A stretch of 64,000 bases of DNA from a bacterium (GTDB lineage Bacteria; Patescibacteriota; Minisyncoccia; Moranbacterales; UBA1568): contig JAKACP010000001.1 in assembly GCA_021821305.1 (NCBI GenBank), positions 132,934 to 196,933 of the forward strand, given 5' to 3'. Shown here piece by piece: positions 28,929 to 55,960 of the stretch; within the stretch, counting starts at the first letter, position 1; each line of letters begins with the position of its first letter. Both the position numbers and the translations under genes were made by a program. The notes under the pieces were generated by a model, which saw nothing but the letters and a program-made list of their open reading frames with translations, did not search any database and had not been told where the DNA came from.

Positions 28929-29012
28929 GCCCAGGTGGCGGAATTGGTATACGCGCTAGCTTGAGGTGCTAGTTCTCGCAAGGGATTGGAGGTTCGAGTC
29001 CTCTCCTGGGCA
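28929..29012 (+). tRNA. tRNA-Leu(GAG)
   Basis: Acceptor GCCCAGG/CCTGGGC; anticodon stem CTAGC/GCTAG with loop TTGAGGT; long variable arm; T-arm GGTTCGAGTCC; discriminator A; no encoded CCA. Confidence 0.85.
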
Positions 29013-29072
29013 CAAGCGAGGGAAAAAACTGGCAATCGCCAGTTTTTTGTTTATAATTGATGAAGCATGATC

Positions 29073-29094
29073 GGACGATTAGCTCAGTTGGTTA
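29073..29094 (+). pseudogene. tRNA-Val-like 5' fragment (acceptor 5' strand plus D-arm up to GGTTA), interrupted in the D-loop
   Basis: GGACGATTAGCTCAGTTGGTTA matches the first 22 nt of the downstream tRNA-Val (GGGCAATTAGCTCAGTTGGTTA-GAGC). The D-stem 3' strand GAGC reappears only after a 63-nt insert; no anticodon or T arm follows. Confidence 0.45.
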
Positions 29095-29157
29095 CCCGCC
29101 CGAACGACCGGGTCCCCGCCAGAATGACTCTGTCGGGCTGGGTCCGGTCGGGCGGGG
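29095..29157 (+). repeat. GC-rich palindromic element (CCCGCCCGAACG...CGGGCGGGG) inserted in the tRNA-like D-loop
   Basis: CCCGCCCGAACGACCGGGTCC ... GGGTCCGGTCGGGCGGGG: imperfect long inverted repeat. Shares the CCCGCCCGAACG/CGGGCGGG core with the elements at 37983..38018 and 38145..38180. Confidence 0.5.
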
Positions 29158-29191
29158 AGCATCTCATTTTCCCGCCATACAGTGAAACTTT

Positions 29192-29265
29192 GGGCAATTA
29201 GCTCAGTTGGTTAGAGCGCCTCGTTTACACCGAGGAAGTCGGAGGTTCGAGTCCTCCATTGCCCA
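29192..29265 (+). tRNA. tRNA-Val(TAC)
   Basis: Acceptor GGGCAAT/ATTGCCC; anticodon stem CCTCG/CGAGG with loop TTTACAC; T-arm GGAGGTTCGAGTCCTCC. Confidence 0.85.
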
Positions 29266-29449
29266 CAGGCGAAAAGAATGACTCAAAATAAATGCACATC
29301 ATGCGGAGAGTTCTGGAGCAGGCACCATTGATTTTTTCCGCTGATACGATACAATAGCTCCTGTATCAGCAAGAGCCTGTTGAGAAAGTCTCTTTCGTCG
29401 CAATTCCCGGATTGCAGCAGAATACGGACTTTTTCAACAGACTCTCAGA

Positions 29450-29521
29450 GCCGGGGTAGCTCAGTGGTAGAGCAGAGGACTGAAAATCCTCGTGTCGGCA
29501 GTTCAATTCTGCCCCCCGGCA
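29450..29521 (+). tRNA. tRNA-Phe(GAA)
   Basis: Acceptor GCCGGGG/CCCCGGC; anticodon stem GAGGA/TCCTC with loop CTGAAAA; T-loop TTCAATT. Confidence 0.85.
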
Positions 29522-29583
29522 CAGGCCGTTTTGTGGATAAGGGGTGTATATCCGTTCATTGGAGAGCGATTTCCACAGGTCCT

Positions 29584-29656
29584 GGGACTGTAGCTCAGCG
29601 GTTAGAGCAGGCGGCTCATAACCGCTTGGTCGCTGGTTCGAATCCAGCCAGTCCCA
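29584..29656 (+). tRNA. tRNA with CAT anticodon, most likely tRNA-Ile2 (lysidine, k2CAU) rather than elongator Met
   Basis: Acceptor GGGACTG/CAGTCCC is fully paired, so not an initiator. The D/anticodon/T region GCAGGCGGCTCATAACCGCTTGGTCGCTGGTTCGAATCCAGC closely resembles E. coli ileX (from memory). tilS is present in this window. Confidence 0.7.
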
Positions 29657-29671
29657 CAGAAGCGCAGTAAA

Positions 29672-29743
29672 GCGGGTATCGTATAGCGGCTATTATGTGA
29701 CCTTGCCAAGGTCAAGATACGGGTTCGACTCCCGTTACCCGCT
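29672..29743 (+). tRNA. tRNA-Gly(GCC)
   Basis: Acceptor GCGGGTA/TACCCGC; anticodon stem TGACC/GGTCA with loop TTGCCAA; T-arm ACGGGTTCGACTCCCGT; atypical D-arm. Confidence 0.8.
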
Positions 29744-29814
29744 CAAAAGAGGCAAAAAGCGGCACCAAGTGTGCTGTTTTTTGCTTTAAAATAGGGAAAA
29801 TATGGAAATTATCC

Positions 29815-29843
29815 TTGACAGCGACGAGAAAATCTGCTATACT
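29815..29843 (+). promoter_or_regulatory. consensus sigma70-type promoter for the 3D-domain gene
   Basis: TTGACA (29815..29820), 17-nt spacer, TATACT (29838..29843); ~90-nt structured leader before ATG 29940. Confidence 0.5.
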
Positions 29844-29939
29844 CCTCCGTTATCGTGAAAACCCGAGAAATCATGGTTTTCCCGGCAACCCGAGCGGGAC
29901 GCAGCCTCGTACGTCTCGGATAAGCATTGAAAGTACGAT

Positions 29940-30521
29940 ATGAGTGGTAAACGCCTGGCGCTGGTCCTCGGAATAGCCATATTCTCATGGGCGAACGTCG
30001 CGAATGCCGAAACCGATATCGAAACCGTCGAAACGAACAACGAGATACTCCGTATTTCGGAGAAAAATACATACGATTTCATGAAGGATCCGTTCCTTCT
30101 CTCGCTCATCCTCATGAAGGAAGACGCGATCGAGACGCCGAAGCCGGAACAGAGTCGCGAAGAGACGCCGGAGGAAAAGATCCTTTCCAAGTGGCGCGTG
30201 AAACAGCAGGACAAGTGGGCGAGCCTTCCGAAAGGAAAGTTCGTCGTCAATGCCTCCGCGTATACCGCCTCGGCTGACGAGTGCGGAAACGACAAGGGCA
30301 TCACGGCCTCCGGCCTGCTTGTCAAGAAAGAGCGGACGCTCGCCTGCCCTCCCGAATTCCCGTTCGGTGCCAAGGTGGCGATCGAAGGAATCGGAGTGCT
30401 CCGCTGCGAAGACCGCGGCGGTGCGATCAAGGGAAATCACTTCGACATCTACATGGAAACCAAGACGGAAGCCTTCGCCTTCGGGCGCAGGAACCTCGTC
30501 GCCGAAGTCGTCCTTGACTAA
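29940..30521 (+). CDS. secreted 3D-domain (MltA-like/YuiC-type) cell-wall-binding protein
   Basis: Signal peptide MSGKRLALVLGIAIFSWANVANA. C-terminal 3D domain with conserved Asp residues (TASGLLVKKERTLACPPEFPFGAKVAIEGIGVLRCEDRGGAIKGNHFDIYM). Confidence 0.7.
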   Translation: MSGKRLALVLGIAIFSWANVANAETDIETVETNNEILRISEKNTYDFMKDPFLLSLILMKEDAIETPKPEQSREETPEEKILSKWRVKQQDKWASLPKGKFVVNASAYTASADECGNDKGITASGLLVKKERTLACPPEFPFGAKVAIEGIGVLRCEDRGGAIKGNHFDIYMETKTEAFAFGRRNLVAEVVLD

Positions 30522-30609
30522 GGCGGCCAATGAAAACGCCCCGGCATCCGTCGGAGCGTTTTTTTGTTGACGCTCACCACTCTCTTTGGTACGCTTGGCA
30601 GGTGGTACC

Positions 30610-30683
30610 GGCCAGGTGTCCGAGCGGTTAGGAAGAGGTCTGCAAAACCTCGTACAGGAGTTCGACTCTCCTCCTGGCCTCCA
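30610..30683 (+). tRNA. tRNA-Cys(GCA), CCA encoded
   Basis: Acceptor GGCCAGG/CCTGGCC; anticodon stem GAGGT/ACCTC with loop CTGCAAA; T-arm AGGAGTTCGACTCTCCT; discriminator T then CCA. Confidence 0.85.
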
Positions 30684-30736
30684 GATGAAAATTATGGTAA
30701 TCTTACAGGTGTGACAACCTCTGTAAGTTTGCCATT

Positions 30737-31207
30737 ATGCGGCCTCGAAAATGGACGGATGCCCAGTTGATCGCGGCGGTAAAAAAATTCAAGAGTACCA
30801 GGGCCGTTATCAATGCATTGGGGCTCATCCCTGCCGGAGGAAATTATCTCCAAGTGAAAGAAAGAATACGGGATCTTGGCCTCGACACCTCGCATTTTCT
30901 CGGTATGGGATGGTGCAAAGGGATGTCTTTTGATCGTCCGATGATCCCTCTTGAGAACATTCTTGTCGAAAATTCGTCATATCAGAGTTATAAATTGAAA
31001 AAACGACTCTTCCGTCTGGGCTTGAAGATTCCTAAGTGCGAGGAATGCGGATGGGCGAAGATATCCGCTGATGGCCGGATCCCATTGGAGCTTGACCATA
31101 TCAACGGAAATTCCAGGGATCACCGGATCGGAAACTTACGGGTGCTTTGCCCCAATTGTCATAGCTTGAAGCCGACACATCGTGGAAAAAACAAGAACAG
31201 GAAGTAG
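30737..31207 (+). CDS. HNH endonuclease (free-standing, homing-endonuclease-like)
   Basis: C-terminal HNH motif ELDHINGNSRDHRIGNLRVLCPNCHSLKP plus CEECGW zinc-hook Cys. N-terminal helical region (WTDAQLIAAVKKFKSTRAVINALGL...LGLDTSHF) as in phage/actinobacterial HNH proteins. Confidence 0.85.
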   Translation: MRPRKWTDAQLIAAVKKFKSTRAVINALGLIPAGGNYLQVKERIRDLGLDTSHFLGMGWCKGMSFDRPMIPLENILVENSSYQSYKLKKRLFRLGLKIPKCEECGWAKISADGRIPLELDHINGNSRDHRIGNLRVLCPNCHSLKPTHRGKNKNRK

Positions 31208-31215
31208 TTTGTTTC

Positions 31216-31297
31216 GGGTCGGTGGTGGAACTGGCATACACGCGACACTTAAAATGTCGTGCCGAAAGGCTTGAGGGTTCGACTCCCTCCCGACCCA
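31216..31297 (+). tRNA. tRNA-Leu(TAA)
   Basis: Acceptor GGGTCGG/CCGACCC; anticodon stem CGACA/TGTCG with loop CTTAAAA; long variable arm; T-arm GAGGGTTCGACTCCCTC. Confidence 0.8.
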
Positions 31298-31397
31298 CAG
31301 AGCTTTTTCTTTCGTATCTGACGCTGGACGAAATATTCACTTTCTGTTAGGCTTTTCGGAAGTTCTTTTTCAACCGAAACTGTTAGGAGGGTGCAAC

Positions 31398-51299: not shown

Positions 51300-52325
51300 A
51301 TGGGTTTCTTCGGAAAAATATTGAAAAAGGACGATCAGACGGCCGCGGGTACCATACCGCCGGAGATATACAAGAGCGTCCGGGTGATGCGCGACGACCT
51401 GAACGAGCTCGAGGGAAAGCCGCCGGAAGGGATTCCGGGTGCCGTTGCTCCGGAGGCGAGCGATGCGGGACACCCCTTTCTCGGGGCGCATGGGCACCCG
51501 TCCGCACCGGAGGCACCCGTCGCCGACACCTCCGTGGCGCCAGCTTCGAAAAATTTAAAAAAATGGCTCATTCCGGCCGCTGTCGTGATTCTTGTCCTCA
51601 TGATCGGCGGTATTACGGCATATTTTTTCCTCCGTTCCACGCCCGAAAACGATACCGTCGAATCCGTACCGACCACCGAAATCCCGTCGCCGGTCGACGG
51701 TATGCAGGCACCGACCGCTGAACCCACGCCCGCGCCGACGTCCGCGTTCTCTCCCGACAGCCCCAACTATCTCGCGCTTGATCCGGAGTCGGATGCGGCG
51801 ACACCCGAGGGTATCGTGGCTACGCTCGAAGGTGTCGGCATGAAGGTGAGGGAGATGAACCCGTCCGGGCCGGTCGAATTCCTCCTGCGCGACGGGAACA
51901 ACAATCCGATCGCCTTTTCCCGCTTCTCATACCTCATGAAACTCGGTATCCCCGAGGACACGCTTTCGTTCCTGGATGAGTCGTTCTCGCTCTATTTCGT
52001 TCCGGAGGGATCCGATATCCGGATGACGCTGGTCCTGGACATCAAGGATGCCGCTAACCTCGTGGGGGCGGTGAACCGGGATGAGGCTGTGGTACCGACG
52101 TGGTTCAGCGGACTCCTGTACCGGCCCGCCGGTGTCGAAGTACCGGCGTCGGTCGAGTTCCGCAGCGGGACGTATGGCGCGCTTGAGACGAGGTTCGTCC
52201 CGATCGACGCCGCGAAGAATTATTCGTTCGACTACATCTTCCTCGCGGACAAGTGGATGATCGGAACCAGCAAGGATTCGTTCCGGGCGACCGTCGATGC
52301 CGTGATCAAAGATGGCGTGCGATAG
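51300..52325 (+). CDS. membrane-anchored hypothetical protein (single TM, Pro/Ala/Thr-rich linker, C-terminal globular domain)
   Basis: TM helix WLIPAAVVILVLMIGGITAYFFL; no recognised family. Confidence 0.5.
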   Translation: MGFFGKILKKDDQTAAGTIPPEIYKSVRVMRDDLNELEGKPPEGIPGAVAPEASDAGHPFLGAHGHPSAPEAPVADTSVAPASKNLKKWLIPAAVVILVLMIGGITAYFFLRSTPENDTVESVPTTEIPSPVDGMQAPTAEPTPAPTSAFSPDSPNYLALDPESDAATPEGIVATLEGVGMKVREMNPSGPVEFLLRDGNNNPIAFSRFSYLMKLGIPEDTLSFLDESFSLYFVPEGSDIRMTLVLDIKDAANLVGAVNRDEAVVPTWFSGLLYRPAGVEVPASVEFRSGTYGALETRFVPIDAAKNYSFDYIFLADKWMIGTSKDSFRATVDAVIKDGVR

Positions 52326-52450
52326 GGATTTTTGGAAGGGAAACAGAAAGTCGGATCACTTTATTTTTCGATCGGGTTTCGGGAAAATTTCCACTCGTAT
52401 CCACAACTCCCTGAAAACGGCTTGTATGAAGTGTAAATAAGGAATGATAA

Positions 52451-52479
52451 TTGACCGGAGGTCAAATTCCTGCTATAAT
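52451..52479 (+). promoter_or_regulatory. consensus sigma70 promoter with no downstream ORF
   Basis: TTGACC (52451..52456), 17-nt spacer, TATAAT (52474..52479). Confidence 0.55.
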
Positions 52480-52485
52480 GGCTTT

Positions 52486-52998
52486 GTAAGTGTCCATTGA
52501 AAACCGAATACGGGGAACGGAGAAAGAGTTTTCAGTCACAATTTCCCCCTGATTGTGACTGAGCATTCTTTCACTGTTCAAGAGCCTGAGGTAAACTCGA
52601 CCTCGGCCGCCCTGATCTGACCAGGGACCCAAAACAAAAACAAAAACACCTTCGAAAAAATAATACAGTCGAAGGAGTCGAAACAAAAACAAACAGAGAA
52701 AAATAGTTCTTTGAATAAAGGGCCAAGTGCCAGAGAATGGTGAAAGGAAAAAAGTCGATGCTACCAGAAGTCAGACAAGCACGGCGAACATGCAAGTCCA
52801 CAAACTACATGCAGCTGAAATGGATTACGAGTGTCTTCTCACCCGGGACGCCGTAACCTCGCTACATGTTGGGACATGCAGTCGGGCGCTCCAGCCAAAT
52901 ATTTATATTATTGGGCGCAAGGAGCGCCCGACACCAACACTTTCCCCGAGTGTCGTGTCGGGAGAAGGAAGATGAATGCCTCGCAAGGGCGTTTTTTT
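52486..52998 (+). ncRNA. candidate structured non-coding RNA of unknown family (~510 nt)
   Basis: Between the promoter and a GC hairpin plus T7 tract (52978..52998). Perfect hairpins include CAGTCACAAT/ATTGTGACTG, CCCTG/CAGGG, CCTTCGA/TCGAAGG, and 12-bp GTCGGGCGCTCC/GGAGCGCCCGAC. Local GC is below the genome average. Only short, implausible ORFs overlap. Confidence 0.3.
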
Positions 52999-53320
52999 AT
53001 TGTTCGTCTCCGCTTTGGCGGAGCAACGAACAATAAACCCCGCTGTTTTTCTTAAAAACATTTGCGGGGTCGTGCCTTGTTTTTATCGAATTCGGAATTT
53101 TTTGTATTCAGACCCCGGCCCCGCTCCATGCAACTTTTTCTCCTCGCTCCGGACTCATCGCGGCTTTCGATTATCGGAATATTTCCCTCATTCGACGGCA
53201 TCCTGAGGAAATATTCCGAACCGAAAGCCGCTCTTCAGACAGGCGGAGGCGAAAGAGAAAAAATTCATGGAGCAGGGTCGGATTGCGCTCGATTCGGGTG
53301 ATGCGCTATAGTGAGCATAT

Positions 53321-53731
53321 TTGAAATACCCTATGCCATTTCTTCGGCGGTTCCGTCTCACGAACCCGCTCGGTGTCCGGGGGGAGGACGAGGCGGTGAT
53401 ATTTTTGAAGAAACGGGGATTCGCGATCATCGAACGGAATTGGAAGAATCGGACCGGTCGCGCCATAGGCGAGATCGATATCGTTGCGAAAGAAGGGAAC
53501 GAACTGGTGTTCGTCGAGGTCAAAGCGAGGAAATCGAGACGAGAGGAAACCGTGCTCCCCGAAGAAAGCATCACCCGAGGGAAGCTTCGACGCCTCTCGC
53601 GTATCGCGGAAGGGTATATACGTGAAAAAAGGCTTGGAAATGCCCCGTATCGGATTGATGCGCTCCTTCTCGTATTTTCGGATTCCGGAAAAGAGACCGA
53701 AGTACGGCATTTTCGGAGCATTTTTCTTTAG
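53321..53731 (+). CDS. yraN: YraN-family (UPF0102) predicted endonuclease
   Basis: GEDEAVIFLKKRGFAIIERNWKNRTGRAIGEIDIVAKEGNELVFVEVKAR is the YraN signature. Confidence 0.8.
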   Translation: MKYPMPFLRRFRLTNPLGVRGEDEAVIFLKKRGFAIIERNWKNRTGRAIGEIDIVAKEGNELVFVEVKARKSRREETVLPEESITRGKLRRLSRIAEGYIREKRLGNAPYRIDALLLVFSDSGKETEVRHFRSIFL

Positions 53732-53814
53732 AGAAAGCGGTGACAGGCACCCTGTCTGGACGCGAATATTTTTTTGGAATACAATGGATACGCGATAACC
53801 ATTCTTTAGAAGCT

Positions 53815-54159
53815 ATGGCACTCAGCAATGAATTCGTGGCGGAAATGAAGGTGCTTCTGACCGCGGAGAAGGAGAAGCTGGAACAGCAGCTCTCGCGATT
53901 CGCCGCTCCGACCGAGGTTTCCGGCGAGTATGAGACGAAATTCGAGGATATCGGGCCGGACGTCGACGAGAACGCCTCGGAGGTGGAGATGTACGCGGAC
54001 AATATCGCGCTTGAGGACAATCTGGAACAGCAGCTCGAGCGGGTCAATGCCGCGCTTGCCCGCATCGAAGGAGGGACGTACGGTATCTGCGTGAAGACCG
54101 GCAAAGAAATCTCCGAAGATCGCCTCCGCGCCTACCCGGCGGCCGAGACCGCTCTTTAG
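53815..54159 (+). CDS. DksA/TraR-family protein lacking the C4 zinc finger
   Basis: Coiled-coil N-region and C-terminal GTYGICVKTGKEISEDRLRAYPAAETAL, aligning to the DksA finger region with only one Cys. Start at MALSNEF within ORF 53740..54159. Confidence 0.5.
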   Translation: MALSNEFVAEMKVLLTAEKEKLEQQLSRFAAPTEVSGEYETKFEDIGPDVDENASEVEMYADNIALEDNLEQQLERVNAALARIEGGTYGICVKTGKEISEDRLRAYPAAETAL

Positions 54160-54174
54160 TAGCCGAAAGCTGGG

Positions 54175-54645
54175 ATGAGACATACCGAGTCAATCGAAGG
54201 AAAAATAAAAAAACGGGCTTCCGGCATCATCATCGCCGGAGCCCTTTTTTGTCTGGATCAGTCGGTGAAGTATTCCTTTCCCGCTTCGGATCGGTACTAC
54301 TGCAATCACGACGGACCGTGGGGGACAGTCATGCATGAGGAAGTCCTCCTGTCCGGAGGCGCGCTCCTCCTCGTCGCCTTCGGTACTTTTCTCCTGCGGG
54401 CCAGGGGATGGAGGGAGATCGTCGCGTTCGCGTTCCTTTTCGGTGGCGGACTCTCGAATCTCGTGGACCGCGCCCTATATGGGTGTGTGCGGGATTTTTC
54501 GGTCGTTTCCTGGTTCCCGGCGTTCAATTTCGCGGACGTCTGCCTCTCCGTCGGCGCGGGGCTCCTCCTGACCACGCTTTTCTCGCGCGCACGGAATAGC
54601 GAGATCAGTATTTCTCGAGAATCTCACGACGCTTCGGTTCGATGA
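54175..54645 (+). CDS. lspA: lipoprotein signal peptidase II
   Basis: Four TM helices with conserved GGGLSNLVDR and FNFADV motifs. Confidence 0.8.
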   Translation: MRHTESIEGKIKKRASGIIIAGALFCLDQSVKYSFPASDRYYCNHDGPWGTVMHEEVLLSGGALLLVAFGTFLLRARGWREIVAFAFLFGGGLSNLVDRALYGCVRDFSVVSWFPAFNFADVCLSVGAGLLLTTLFSRARNSEISISRESHDASVR

Positions 54646-55960
54646 CGGCGAGGACGGAATCGATGAACTTCCAGGAAAGGAGGATCTCCTGGGCGTTGAG
54701 GAATGTTCCCTGGTCCTTGGCGAAGAAGTCGTGGAGCGCATTGTCGTAGGGCTCCTTGAAGGAATAGGCGTTGTCCGCGAAGGCGAAACGGAGATCGGCC
54801 GGGTAGGCGCACTTCTTTTCGGTCGAGAATTCGGAGTTGAGGCGGAGGCGGATCTCGTTTTCCGGCTGGATATTGATCCGGATGCGGTTCTCGGCGAGCG
54901 CGCAGCCGGACGCCTCCCAGAGCGTGTGCTCGGGTTTCCTGAAGGTGACGGTGATGTCGGTCGTTTTCTTCGGCATCTTCTTGCCGCTCGCTATGGTGAT
55001 GGGGATGCCGCGCCATCGGGGCGTATCGATCTCGAGACGGATGGACGCCCGGGTTTCCACGAGCGAGTCGCTCGCGACGAGCGGCTCCTTCCGATAGCCG
55101 TCGTATTGGCCGATGCTGATATTCTCGAGTTTCTCGTTTCCGAAGAGACGGAGTTTGCGGAAGATGCGGATTTTCTCATGGTGGATGTCCTCCGGATCCT
55201 GACTTTTCGGCTGATCCATGGTCGTGAACGCGAGGAGCTCGAGAGCATGATTCTGGAGCATGTCGCGGATGGCGCCGGAGCGCTCGTAGTATTCGGCGCG
55301 CTTGCGGATGCCTTCATCCTCCCAGATCTCGATCGTGATATCGCGGATGAAACGGCTGTTCCAGACAGGATCGAAGATAGGATTGGCGAAGCGGAGCGCG
55401 AAGAGGTCGCGGACCATGTCTTTGGCGAGGTAGTGGTCGAGGCGGTAGATCTGCGATTCGTCGAGGTGCCGCGCGAGGAGCGCGTTCAATTGTTTCGCCG
55501 AGGCGAGGTCGGAACCGAACGGCTTCTCGAGCGCGAGGCTCGTCGTCTTGCCGAGGAGATCGTTTCCTGCGAGACCGTCGATGATGGCCTCTATGAGTCC
55601 GTATTCCGACGGGATCGCGAGGTAGAAGAAGAGCGATTTCTTCGGCGTTCCACGGAGCGCTTCCGAGAGCGCCTTCATGCCGCCTCGGTCGTAGGTCCCG
55701 GAATAGTAGCGGAAGCAGGAAGAGAAGGTCTCGATATCTTCCGGGGTCGCCTGCGCGCGTTTCGCGGAGACAGCCTCCCGTACGAGCGTGCGGAAGTCAT
55801 CGTGCGAGAACGCCGTGCGGCCGAATCCGGTCACGCGCACGCCCTCGTCGCGCATGAAGAGGTCGAAGAGCGCGGGGTAGAGCTTTTCCTTGGCAAGATC
55901 GCCGGAGGCGCCGAAGAGGATGAGCTCCTTGTCGATATGGAGCGGGGACGGGCAGGTCAT
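54605..55960 (-). CDS. zwf: glucose-6-phosphate 1-dehydrogenase
   Basis: N-terminal FGASGDLA NADP motif; RIDHYLGKE-type (RLDHYLAKD) and EKPFG signature. Confidence 0.9.
   Translation of the reverse strand: MTCPSPLHIDKELILFGASGDLAKEKLYPALFDLFMRDEGVRVTGFGRTAFSHDDFRTLVREAVSAKRAQATPEDIETFSSCFRYYSGTYDRGGMKALSEALRGTPKKSLFFYLAIPSEYGLIEAIIDGLAGNDLLGKTTSLALEKPFGSDLASAKQLNALLARHLDESQIYRLDHYLAKDMVRDLFALRFANPIFDPVWNSRFIRDITIEIWEDEGIRKRAEYYERSGAIRDMLQNHALELLAFTTMDQPKSQDPEDIHHEKIRIFRKLRLFGNEKLENISIGQYDGYRKEPLVASDSLVETRASIRLEIDTPRWRGIPITIASGKKMPKKTTDITVTFRKPEHTLWEASGCALAENRIRINIQPENEIRLRLNSEFSTEKKCAYPADLRFAFADNAYSFKEPYDNALHDFFAKDQGTFLNAQEILLSWKFIDSVLAVIEPKRREILEKY

Follow-up and report, generated by a model that had tools for sequence, protein, structure and literature searches.

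The 64,000-nucleotide stretch of the Moranbacterales contig JAKACP010000001.1 analysed here (the window) contains, at positions 52486-52998 of the forward strand, what is very probably the gene for an independently transcribed, highly structured non-coding RNA (ncRNA) of ~0.5 kb, previously undescribed and likely to act in trans. The RNA is a new family, categorically new at the family level, and no large ncRNA in Moranbacteria or in other members of the Candidate Phyla Radiation (CPR)/Patescibacteria was found described in the full-text literature. It lies within the interval 52326-53320, which is flanked by the gene for a 341-aa membrane protein, here called X (51300-52325, +), and by the UPF0102/YraN gene (53321-53731, +). 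A preliminary description of this interval had proposed either an unclassified large structured ncRNA of ~1 kb or a decayed gene remnant; the former option is supported by conservation from promoter to terminator in 43 loci together with compensatory base changes. The RNA thus combines the general features of a stand-alone structured ncRNA, namely a conserved promoter and terminator of its own, a structure maintained by compensatory changes, and no conserved reading frame.

The transcription unit and its conservation

The interval contains open reading frames (ORFs) of 41-82 aa only, none of them protein-like, and its GC content is 0.43-0.50, compared to ~0.57-0.65 in the surrounding DNA, both in agreement with the preliminary description. 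The strong hairpins that it had quoted were recovered with a repeat finder: the arms 52515-52542 and 52552-52579 hold CAGTCACAAT...ATTGTGACTG, a perfect 12/12 inverted repeat (GTCGGGCGCTCC / GGAGCGCCCGAC) occupies 52881-52892 and 52921-52932, and more perfect inverted repeats of 12-13 bp follow after 52996. Folded as RNA, the + strand of 52486-52998 has a z-score of -9.25, its - strand one of -4.47, and 52999-53320 one of -8.35, so that the folding potential is beyond chance.

For comparative analysis, 43 related Candidatus Moranbacteria loci (labelled L0nn) were gathered through X-based scans of GTDB genomes, exact-protein look-ups and a scan of JGI metagenomes with a 24-nt pattern taken from the RNA itself, the last route yielding 7 loci; 30 sequences were aligned with MAFFT (alignment A3). 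The limits of the transcription unit are set by the following features.

52451-52456, +: -35 box TTGACC, with TTGA invariant and the next C kept in 29/30 aligned homologues
52471-52479, +: extended -10 box TGCTATAAT, an 11/12 promoter match with TG present
52486-52998, +: predicted primary transcript of 513 nt, a single conserved block in 43 loci, with a z-score of -9.25 and an 86-pair structure
52974-52998, +: intrinsic terminator, a hairpin (helix 14, two compensatory pairs) followed by U7, found by scan, the U-run being nearly invariant
52999-53282: lineage-specific spacer outside the RNA, absent from most relatives, in which yraN starts ~20-40 nt past the terminator
53283-53312, +: putative compact yraN promoter TTGCGC-18-TATAGT, read from the sequence and unscored by the consensus scan

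The transcription start was placed 7 nt past the -10 box and the 3' end at the last base of the U7 tract. The TTGACC-17-TATAAT promoter already recognized at 52451-52479 matches the consensus at 11 of 12 positions and carries the TG of an extended -10 element. A consensus scan of 4 kb returned 2 promoter-like sites against 1.7 expected, so that a lone site is not above chance; the site in front of the RNA is kept in 30/30 aligned homologues, with T27, G28, T30, A31, T32, A33 and T35 of the -10 region invariant in A3. The GC hairpin with its T7 tract, also noted earlier, was confirmed as an intrinsic terminator (stem 52974-52994, U-run to 52998). The same scan found the terminator independently in L017 and L040, where the promoter was picked up separately as well. 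The -35 box also forms the left half of a palindrome, TTGACC-GGA-GGTCAA (52451-52465), which is kept as TTGAC-N5/6-GTCAA in the clade of the window and in the clade of L006, L008, L022 and L038 and is not kept in other lineages; it may serve a dimeric regulator as operator.

In A3, conservation starts at the -35 box, the 100 nt upstream being unalignable, and fades over ~20 nt past the U-tract, with the exception of a TTG assigned to the -35 box of yraN. In relatives, yraN often begins 24-36 nt past the U-tract, and the spacer holds a TTGCTw motif abutting the U-tract with TATnnT ~17 nt further on (for example L017:5706-5740). The start codon follows a few nucleotides beyond this -10 element (TTG at 53321 in the window), and the yraN mRNA is therefore probably leaderless or nearly so, as judged from this arrangement. 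Obligatory read-through from the RNA into yraN, considered on the grounds that there was no room for a yraN promoter, was withdrawn because the 24-36 nt spacers hold TTGCTw-~17-TATnnT. Since yraN has a plausible promoter of its own, the RNA appears to be a transcription unit separate from yraN. Of the ~1-kb element proposed in the preliminary description, the part at 52486-52998 stands as the conserved 513-nt RNA; 52999-53320 is a separate, lineage-specific spacer plus the yraN promoter region.

The RNA block was detected by blastn and nhmmer in 43/43 loci, with one copy per locus, on the strand of X and always between pnp-X and yraN. The gene order rpsO, NYN-domain gene, pnp, X, RNA, yraN, dksA/traR, lspA is constant and is often followed by comM; identical neighbours were found at the 7 loci retrieved by the RNA pattern alone. 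Protein X has 80 homologous clusters, and the few whose source is named all belong to Candidatus Moranbacteria/Moraniibacteriota. DNA identities to the window were as follows.

Close relatives: RNA 96-97%, pnp 84-94%, X 69-79%, yraN 74-86%
More distant relatives: RNA 56-84%, pnp 66-81%, X 40-59%, yraN 47-65%

The identity of the RNA equals or surpasses that of pnp, one of the best conserved genes in the neighbourhood, and lies far above those of X and yraN; purifying selection on the RNA block is therefore about equal to that on pnp. No second copy of the RNA was found within the 64-kb window. The 24-nt pattern gave no match in viral contigs, and the RNA was not found in viral contigs, phage genomes or plasmids; a mobile or phage origin was rejected for lack of such matches. 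The distribution points to a single-copy, vertically inherited gene at a syntenic site of the core genome; to judge by the loci sampled, it is confined to Candidatus Moranbacteria (CPR/Patescibacteria). Five metagenome-assembled genomes (MAGs) carry other names, the record titles of L006, L007, L015 and L016 reading 'uncultured Bdellovibrionales' and that of L011 'Candidatus Fimivivens' (GTDB). All five have the Moranbacteria-type pnp-X-RNA-yraN locus, with a PNPase 74-87% identical to that of the window, and these bins are probably mislabelled or contaminated.

Fold, covariation and alternative pairings

The covariation check on homologous regions suggested in the preliminary description was carried out with RNAalifold and pair scoring. 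RNAalifold on A3 gave 76 pairs, 44 of them with compensatory changes. In the curated structure, 5 pairs touching the untranscribed promoter were dropped, and the terminator, H5 and the full H3 were added. The resulting nested structure of 86 pairs has 94.9% of its cells paired across the 30 sequences, compared to 40-44% in a control in which the 3' partners were slid by 1-3 columns. Both sides have changed in 47 of the 86 pairs, at least 10 helices have compensatory support, and 0/500 shuffles reached any of the five measures used. The fold is assigned to the + strand by its many G-U pairs (columns 129-186, 484-577 and 186-583, among others) and by a fold energy that differs between the strands. 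Lineage-specific insertions in the RNA are themselves hairpins, sited in loops or junctions. The elements of the structure are listed below from 5' to 3'.

52515-52579, +: H1, long hairpin (helix 1) with 21 pairs, 12 compensatory, 97.1% paired; its base is formed by the 5' strand S1 (GAACGGAGAAAGAG) and the 3' strand S2 (CUUUCACUGUUC)
52584-52607, +: H2, hairpin (helix 2) with compensatory changes in 6/6 pairs
52610-52626, +: H3, hairpin (helix 3) with loop UCUGAC at 52616-52621, in a kissing interaction with the H7 loop
52628-52648, +: A-rich single-stranded tract 1, CCCAAAACAAAAACAAAAACA, mostly invariant columns, unpaired in minimum free energy (MFE) and consensus folds
52649-52675, +: H4, hairpin with conserved loop AAAAAAUAAUA and 12 differing stem sequences, all pairable
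52676-52705, +: A-rich single-stranded tract 2, ...AAACAAAAACAAACAGAGAAAAA, mostly invariant and unpaired
52706-52747, +: H5 (GUUCUUU / AGAGAAU) around H6 (GGC / GCC), followed by strand S4, GAAUGGUGAAAGG, at 52735-52747
52754-52785, +: H7, hairpin with loop GUCAGA at 52770-52775 and 14 stem variants, all pairable
52792-52879, +: H8, long irregular four-segment hairpin (helices 6-10) with 16 compensatory pairs
52881-52932, +: H9, with an 11-12 bp GC-rich basal stem (the 12/12 repeat), an internal loop and a short upper stem (helices 11-13)
52932-52938, +: CACCAAC directly 3' of H9, with CACCA all but invariant
52939-52973, +: variable 3' segment, including UGUCGGG at 52956-52962, a copy of the H9 5' strand

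Variable stems around conserved loops are a recurring feature: the H4 stem variants surround a conserved AAAAAUAAUA loop and those of H7 a conserved AAGUCAGAC loop, the H1 loop UCCCCCUGA is conserved in most members, and the apical loop of H8 contains the near-invariant heptamer UCACCCG. H4 is flanked by the two largely invariant A/C-rich single-stranded tracts, ~50 nt together, and its loop is A-rich as well. H6 shows one compensatory change. The ~15-nt loop of H9 consists almost exclusively of A and U. The 11-12 bp basal helix of H9 together with the conserved A-CCA (52881-52938) equals a tRNA acceptor/T-arm stack in length. Conservation of the RNA is weakest between the CACCA motif and the terminator, and the RNA may be processed on its 3' side after H9/CACCA or have an acceptor-like end there.

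A scan of all column pairs for stacked covariation, which also recovered the known helices, revealed a kissing interaction between the loops of H3 and H7 (UCUGAC/GUCAGA). It is 97.8% paired, compared to 16-33% in slid controls, and occurs in the covarying forms CCUAAC/GUUAGG, UCUAAC/GUUAGA and UCUGGU/ACCAGA. Three other candidate contacts were set aside. GGUGA (52741-45) and the H8 loop UCACC are both invariant, and their pairing is unsupported since it is broken in L016 and L018; pairing of the H4 loop with the AU-rich H9 loop was left unused as low-complexity A/U, and that of UGGUG with CACCA because it is invariant.

For each of the 3' strands of H1, H8 and H9 there is an alternative partner downstream, which excludes pairing with the first and is a near-copy of the respective 5' strand. 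S2 (UUUCACUGUUC) can pair locally with S1 or with S4 (GAAUGGUGAAA, 52735-52745), the near-copy of S1, and the S2:S4 helix has 11 contiguous bp, is 99.1% paired and includes 6 compensatory pairs. GUUGG in the H8 3' strand can pair with CCAAC (52934-52938); this contact is 99.3% paired, with one compensatory event in 4 sequences. The H9 3' strand can pair with UGUCGGG at 52956-52962 (H9alt), forming 7-9 bp in most members, with the covarying forms CCCGACA/UGUCGGG, CCCGGCA/UGCCGGG and CCCGGAC/GUCCGGG. Two of the three alternative pairings covary in several lineages, and we read all three as evidence for a second conformation or for intermolecular pairing.

Proposed function and rival explanations

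The near-consensus extended -10 promoter would give high constitutive expression, and the RNA is predicted to be abundant. It would act in trans as a housekeeping RNA, because it is an independent unit at a variable distance from yraN, which has its own promoter. Its invariant unpaired tracts and loops make a protein-binding scaffold in a ribonucleoprotein (RNP) the most likely role, in which the A-rich tracts and these loops would be the docking sites. Through the helix-swap modules the RNA may switch between two folds or pair intermolecularly. The weakly conserved stretch 3' of CACCA may be a trailer that is removed in maturation, since conservation is weakest from CACCA to the terminator. 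On a bolder reading, which we hold to be possible but rather doubtful, the RNA is the founding member of a large CPR RNA class with three maintained helix-swap modules, working as a stand-alone, trans-acting two-state machine or a strand-swapped multimer and not as a static scaffold; catalysis or assembly would be conceivable tasks for it in these symbionts with their reduced genomes.

Several points weigh against an independently transcribed, trans-acting RNA with this structure. The transcript, both of its ends and its abundance are predictions. The sample comprises only ~22-25 distinct lineages, all from one order, and several compensatory events are common to related sequences and so count as one event each. 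The A3 alignment is sequence-based (MAFFT) and not structure-based; H4 and H7 were misaligned by MAFFT and were therefore scored with a hairpin-extraction script, and H5 is conserved yet lacks compensatory change. H9alt is absent from 5 divergent members, H9 is more stable than H9alt by 4-14 kcal/mol, and the alternative pairings may stem from intermediates of folding or from contacts between molecules instead of a functional switch. No RNA-binding domain is recognisable in X, and no partner protein was identified.

Among the rival explanations, a protein sponge of the CrcZ/CsrB type, titrating an (ARN)n-binding protein (Hfq-like, S1-like or with a KH domain), has a small but real probability. 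The two mostly invariant A/C-rich tracts and the A-rich H4 loop fit AAnAAnAA repeats, PNPase (KH and S1 domains) is encoded two genes upstream, and CrcZ is the only bacterial small RNA model that touches tract 1 (local alignment at 52631-52680, E = 9.2, scoring 9.1 bits where the gathering score is 95). Such RNAs usually evolve fast outside their repeats, whereas here helices, loops and a tertiary contact are all conserved, and there are just 2-3 tracts. The sponge overlaps with the RNP scaffold, being one mode of protein binding, and does not exclude it. Quite improbable, in our estimate, is a giant cis-acting leader or attenuator of yraN-dksA/traR-lspA(-comM), in which the exclusive helices (S1:S2 or S2:S4, H9 or H9alt) would set read-through at the terminator. 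The RNA lies on the strand of yraN and always directly upstream of it, one of the covarying alternative pairings adjoins the terminator, and in L006 and L013 the terminator hairpin is broken up in the MFE fold that contains H9. However, the terminator forms in both states in 9/11 homologues, as MFE folds with the H9 5' strand blocked show, and for this reason the attenuator model was demoted to a rival. In addition, yraN has its plausible promoter just past the U-tract, in several lineages including that of the window unrelated palindromic DNA separates the terminator from yraN by 190-330 nt, an RNA of 500 nt and 10 helices is far larger than any known riboswitch or attenuator, and YraN, as a D-loop-resolving DNA nuclease, offers no obvious need for such a leader.

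A highly divergent member of a known family missed by Rfam (RNase P RNA, tmRNA, 6S, SRP RNA, OLE, GOLLD, ROOL or raiA) has some appeal, because CPR RNAs are frequently divergent and the locus is housekeeping-like (single copy, strong promoter, vertical inheritance), and H9 with its 11-12 bp helix is followed by a conserved ACCA; we consider it very improbable. The Rfam/Infernal check proposed in the preliminary description was run with cmscan against the 4227 models of Rfam 15 and returned no credible match to a known family in the window or in 18 homologous loci. At the gathering score, the whole window gave ten tRNAs only and the 18 loci gave zero matches. A permissive search of the region (E<=10) added only miRNA-type hairpin noise and the 9-bit CrcZ fragment, and nothing credible was found in two divergent homologues at E<=1. 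RNase P RNA (RF00010 / RF00011) had no match in the region at the gathering score or at E<=10 and none in the 18 loci, and the models for OLE (RF01071), GOLLD, ROOL, raiA and HEARO had none in the window or those loci. For 6S and SRP RNA there was likewise no Rfam match, and the RNA folds into a row of local hairpins. Neither Rfam nor ARAGORN gave a match to tmRNA (RF00023 and permuted forms), ARAGORN at default settings reporting 10 tRNAs and zero tmRNA in the window. At lowered thresholds, ARAGORN called a weak 'tRNA-Val (cac)' over H8 in 7/28 homologues, which would favour a divergent family; the relaxed calls were inconsistent in position, strand, type and tag, and a tRNA-like or tmRNA reading was rejected as threshold noise. 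The covariation-supported H8 is a rod, not a cloverleaf, and the length of 513 nt and the order of the helices match none of the families listed. Least probable of all, to the point of being negligible, is a decayed protein gene or a small-protein gene. The window has ORFs of 76-82 aa (for example 52727-52975, +) and some relatives have open frames of 100-200 aa across the region; against this, the longest ORFs of the 30 sequences lie at differing positions and in differing frames on both strands, none being conserved, and the gene remnant suggested earlier is rejected. Indels are common in A3, and the length of several is plainly no multiple of three. Substitutions within helices compensate one another, and conservation tracks the promoter and terminator limits and no ORF.

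Neighbouring genes and relation to known RNAs

The spacer between the RNA and yraN is made up of a hairpin (52996-53037), a GC-rich hairpin (~53037-53070) and a 167-nt imperfect palindrome (53115-53281). The first, which includes the terminator U-tract within its 5' arm (UUUAUUGUUCG...CGAACAAUAAA), is found again, with compensatory changes, in L008, L022, L031, L032 and L039 and is altered in L026. The second (AAACCCCGC...GCGGGGU) recurs in L031, L008, L022 and L032. The palindrome is present only in close relatives: it is 83.5% identical in L026 (4398-4598), matches L031 (3030-3186) best in the opposite orientation, and its apical sequence UCGACGGCAUCCUGAGG is kept on differing stems in L028 (3972-4038) and L008 (4444-4467). 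It looks like a palindromic element that is invertible or mobile, or perhaps like a further structured RNA.

Downstream of the RNA, L032, L035, L039 and L040 carry yraN, a dksA/traR-type zinc finger gene, lspA and a ComM-like Mg-chelatase helicase gene. In the window (cluster 53321-54645), the gene after lspA is not comM but one for G6PD, on the - strand (54605-55960). YraN, a DNA endonuclease, is reported to resolve transformation D-loops together with the ComM helicase (bioRxiv 10.1101/2024.02.06.579203). No functional link of YraN to the RNA is apparent. Elsewhere in the window, seven clustered tRNA genes (Leu, Val, Phe, Met, Gly, Cys, Leu) occupy 28929-31298, and three more tRNA genes lie at 34.6-38.1 kb.

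Protein X belongs to no Pfam family, is lineage-specific and is always found upstream of the RNA. Its AlphaFold model has a disordered N-terminus with the conserved motif VRVMRDD, one transmembrane helix and a confident C-terminal alpha/beta domain (pLDDT >90), for which comparison of X with the PDB gave no significant fold match (best DcrB, E = 0.04, TM score 0.18). An RNP of the RNA with X, as for OLE and OapA, is only an analogy, and this candidate was dropped because X has no Pfam match, no fold match and nothing pointing to RNA binding.

Among the closest analogues, along with GOLLD and ROOL, is OLE RNA (RF01071). OLE and the Moranbacteria RNA are both in the ~0.5-0.6 kb size class, have many conserved helices and single-stranded stretches, are limited to one bacterial lineage, have a function that is not deducible from sequence, and adjoin a membrane-protein gene (oapA for OLE, X here). 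However, no covariance-model match to OLE was obtained, and the host belongs to the CPR rather than to the Bacillota. OLE sits inside a long operon, whereas the Moranbacteria RNA has its own promoter and terminator. With GOLLD and ROOL (RF01998, RF03087) it shares a large, ornate and lineage-restricted structure with tertiary contacts and an unknown function. GOLLD and ROOL are often found near tRNA genes or prophages, unlike the Moranbacteria RNA, which is not tied to either, has no viral, phage or plasmid matches, and shows core-genome, vertical inheritance; there is also no model match. GOLLD and ROOL form homo-oligomeric assemblies (PMC12286853), and the duplicated strands described here, with their possible intermolecular pairing, recall these homo-oligomers.

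RNase P RNA, tmRNA, 6S and 4.5S RNA are likewise single-copy, strongly conserved, stand-alone units with a strong promoter and a terminator of their own, and the possible 3' trailer with its terminator and the helix with ACCA behind it, close to the presumed mature 3' end, are reminiscent of such housekeeping RNAs. In contrast, P4-type conserved regions, a tRNA-like domain accompanied by a tag ORF and the central bubble of 6S are all missing from the Moranbacteria RNA, its length and helix order correspond to none of them, and no model matches. CrcZ and CrcY resemble it in the repeated A-rich AAnAAnAA-like single-stranded tracts between hairpins, but the 9 bits scored fall short of the gathering score of 95, the tracts number only 2-3, the conserved fold is complex and includes a kissing loop, and the host lineage is unrelated to Pseudomonas. 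As in riboswitches and attenuators, three strands have two maintained partners, one of them just upstream of an intrinsic terminator; the RNA is, however, 3-5 times larger than known leaders, its terminator usually forms in both states, and the downstream gene has an apparent promoter of its own.

Large bacterial RNAs with complex folds are rare, comprising roughly RNase P RNA, tmRNA, group I/II introns, OLE, GOLLD, ROOL, HEARO and raiA, and several of those with known function proved to be ribozymes or RNP cores. Genomes of Moranbacteria and other ultra-small CPR bacteria are ~1 Mb in size, and for a genome of this size a strongly conserved stretch of 0.5 kb that codes for no protein represents a notable investment. 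Since the RNA comes with predicted ends, a covariation-backed model, a tertiary contact and candidate switches, it is immediately testable, and it provides both a marker gene for the lineage and a seed for a new Rfam family.

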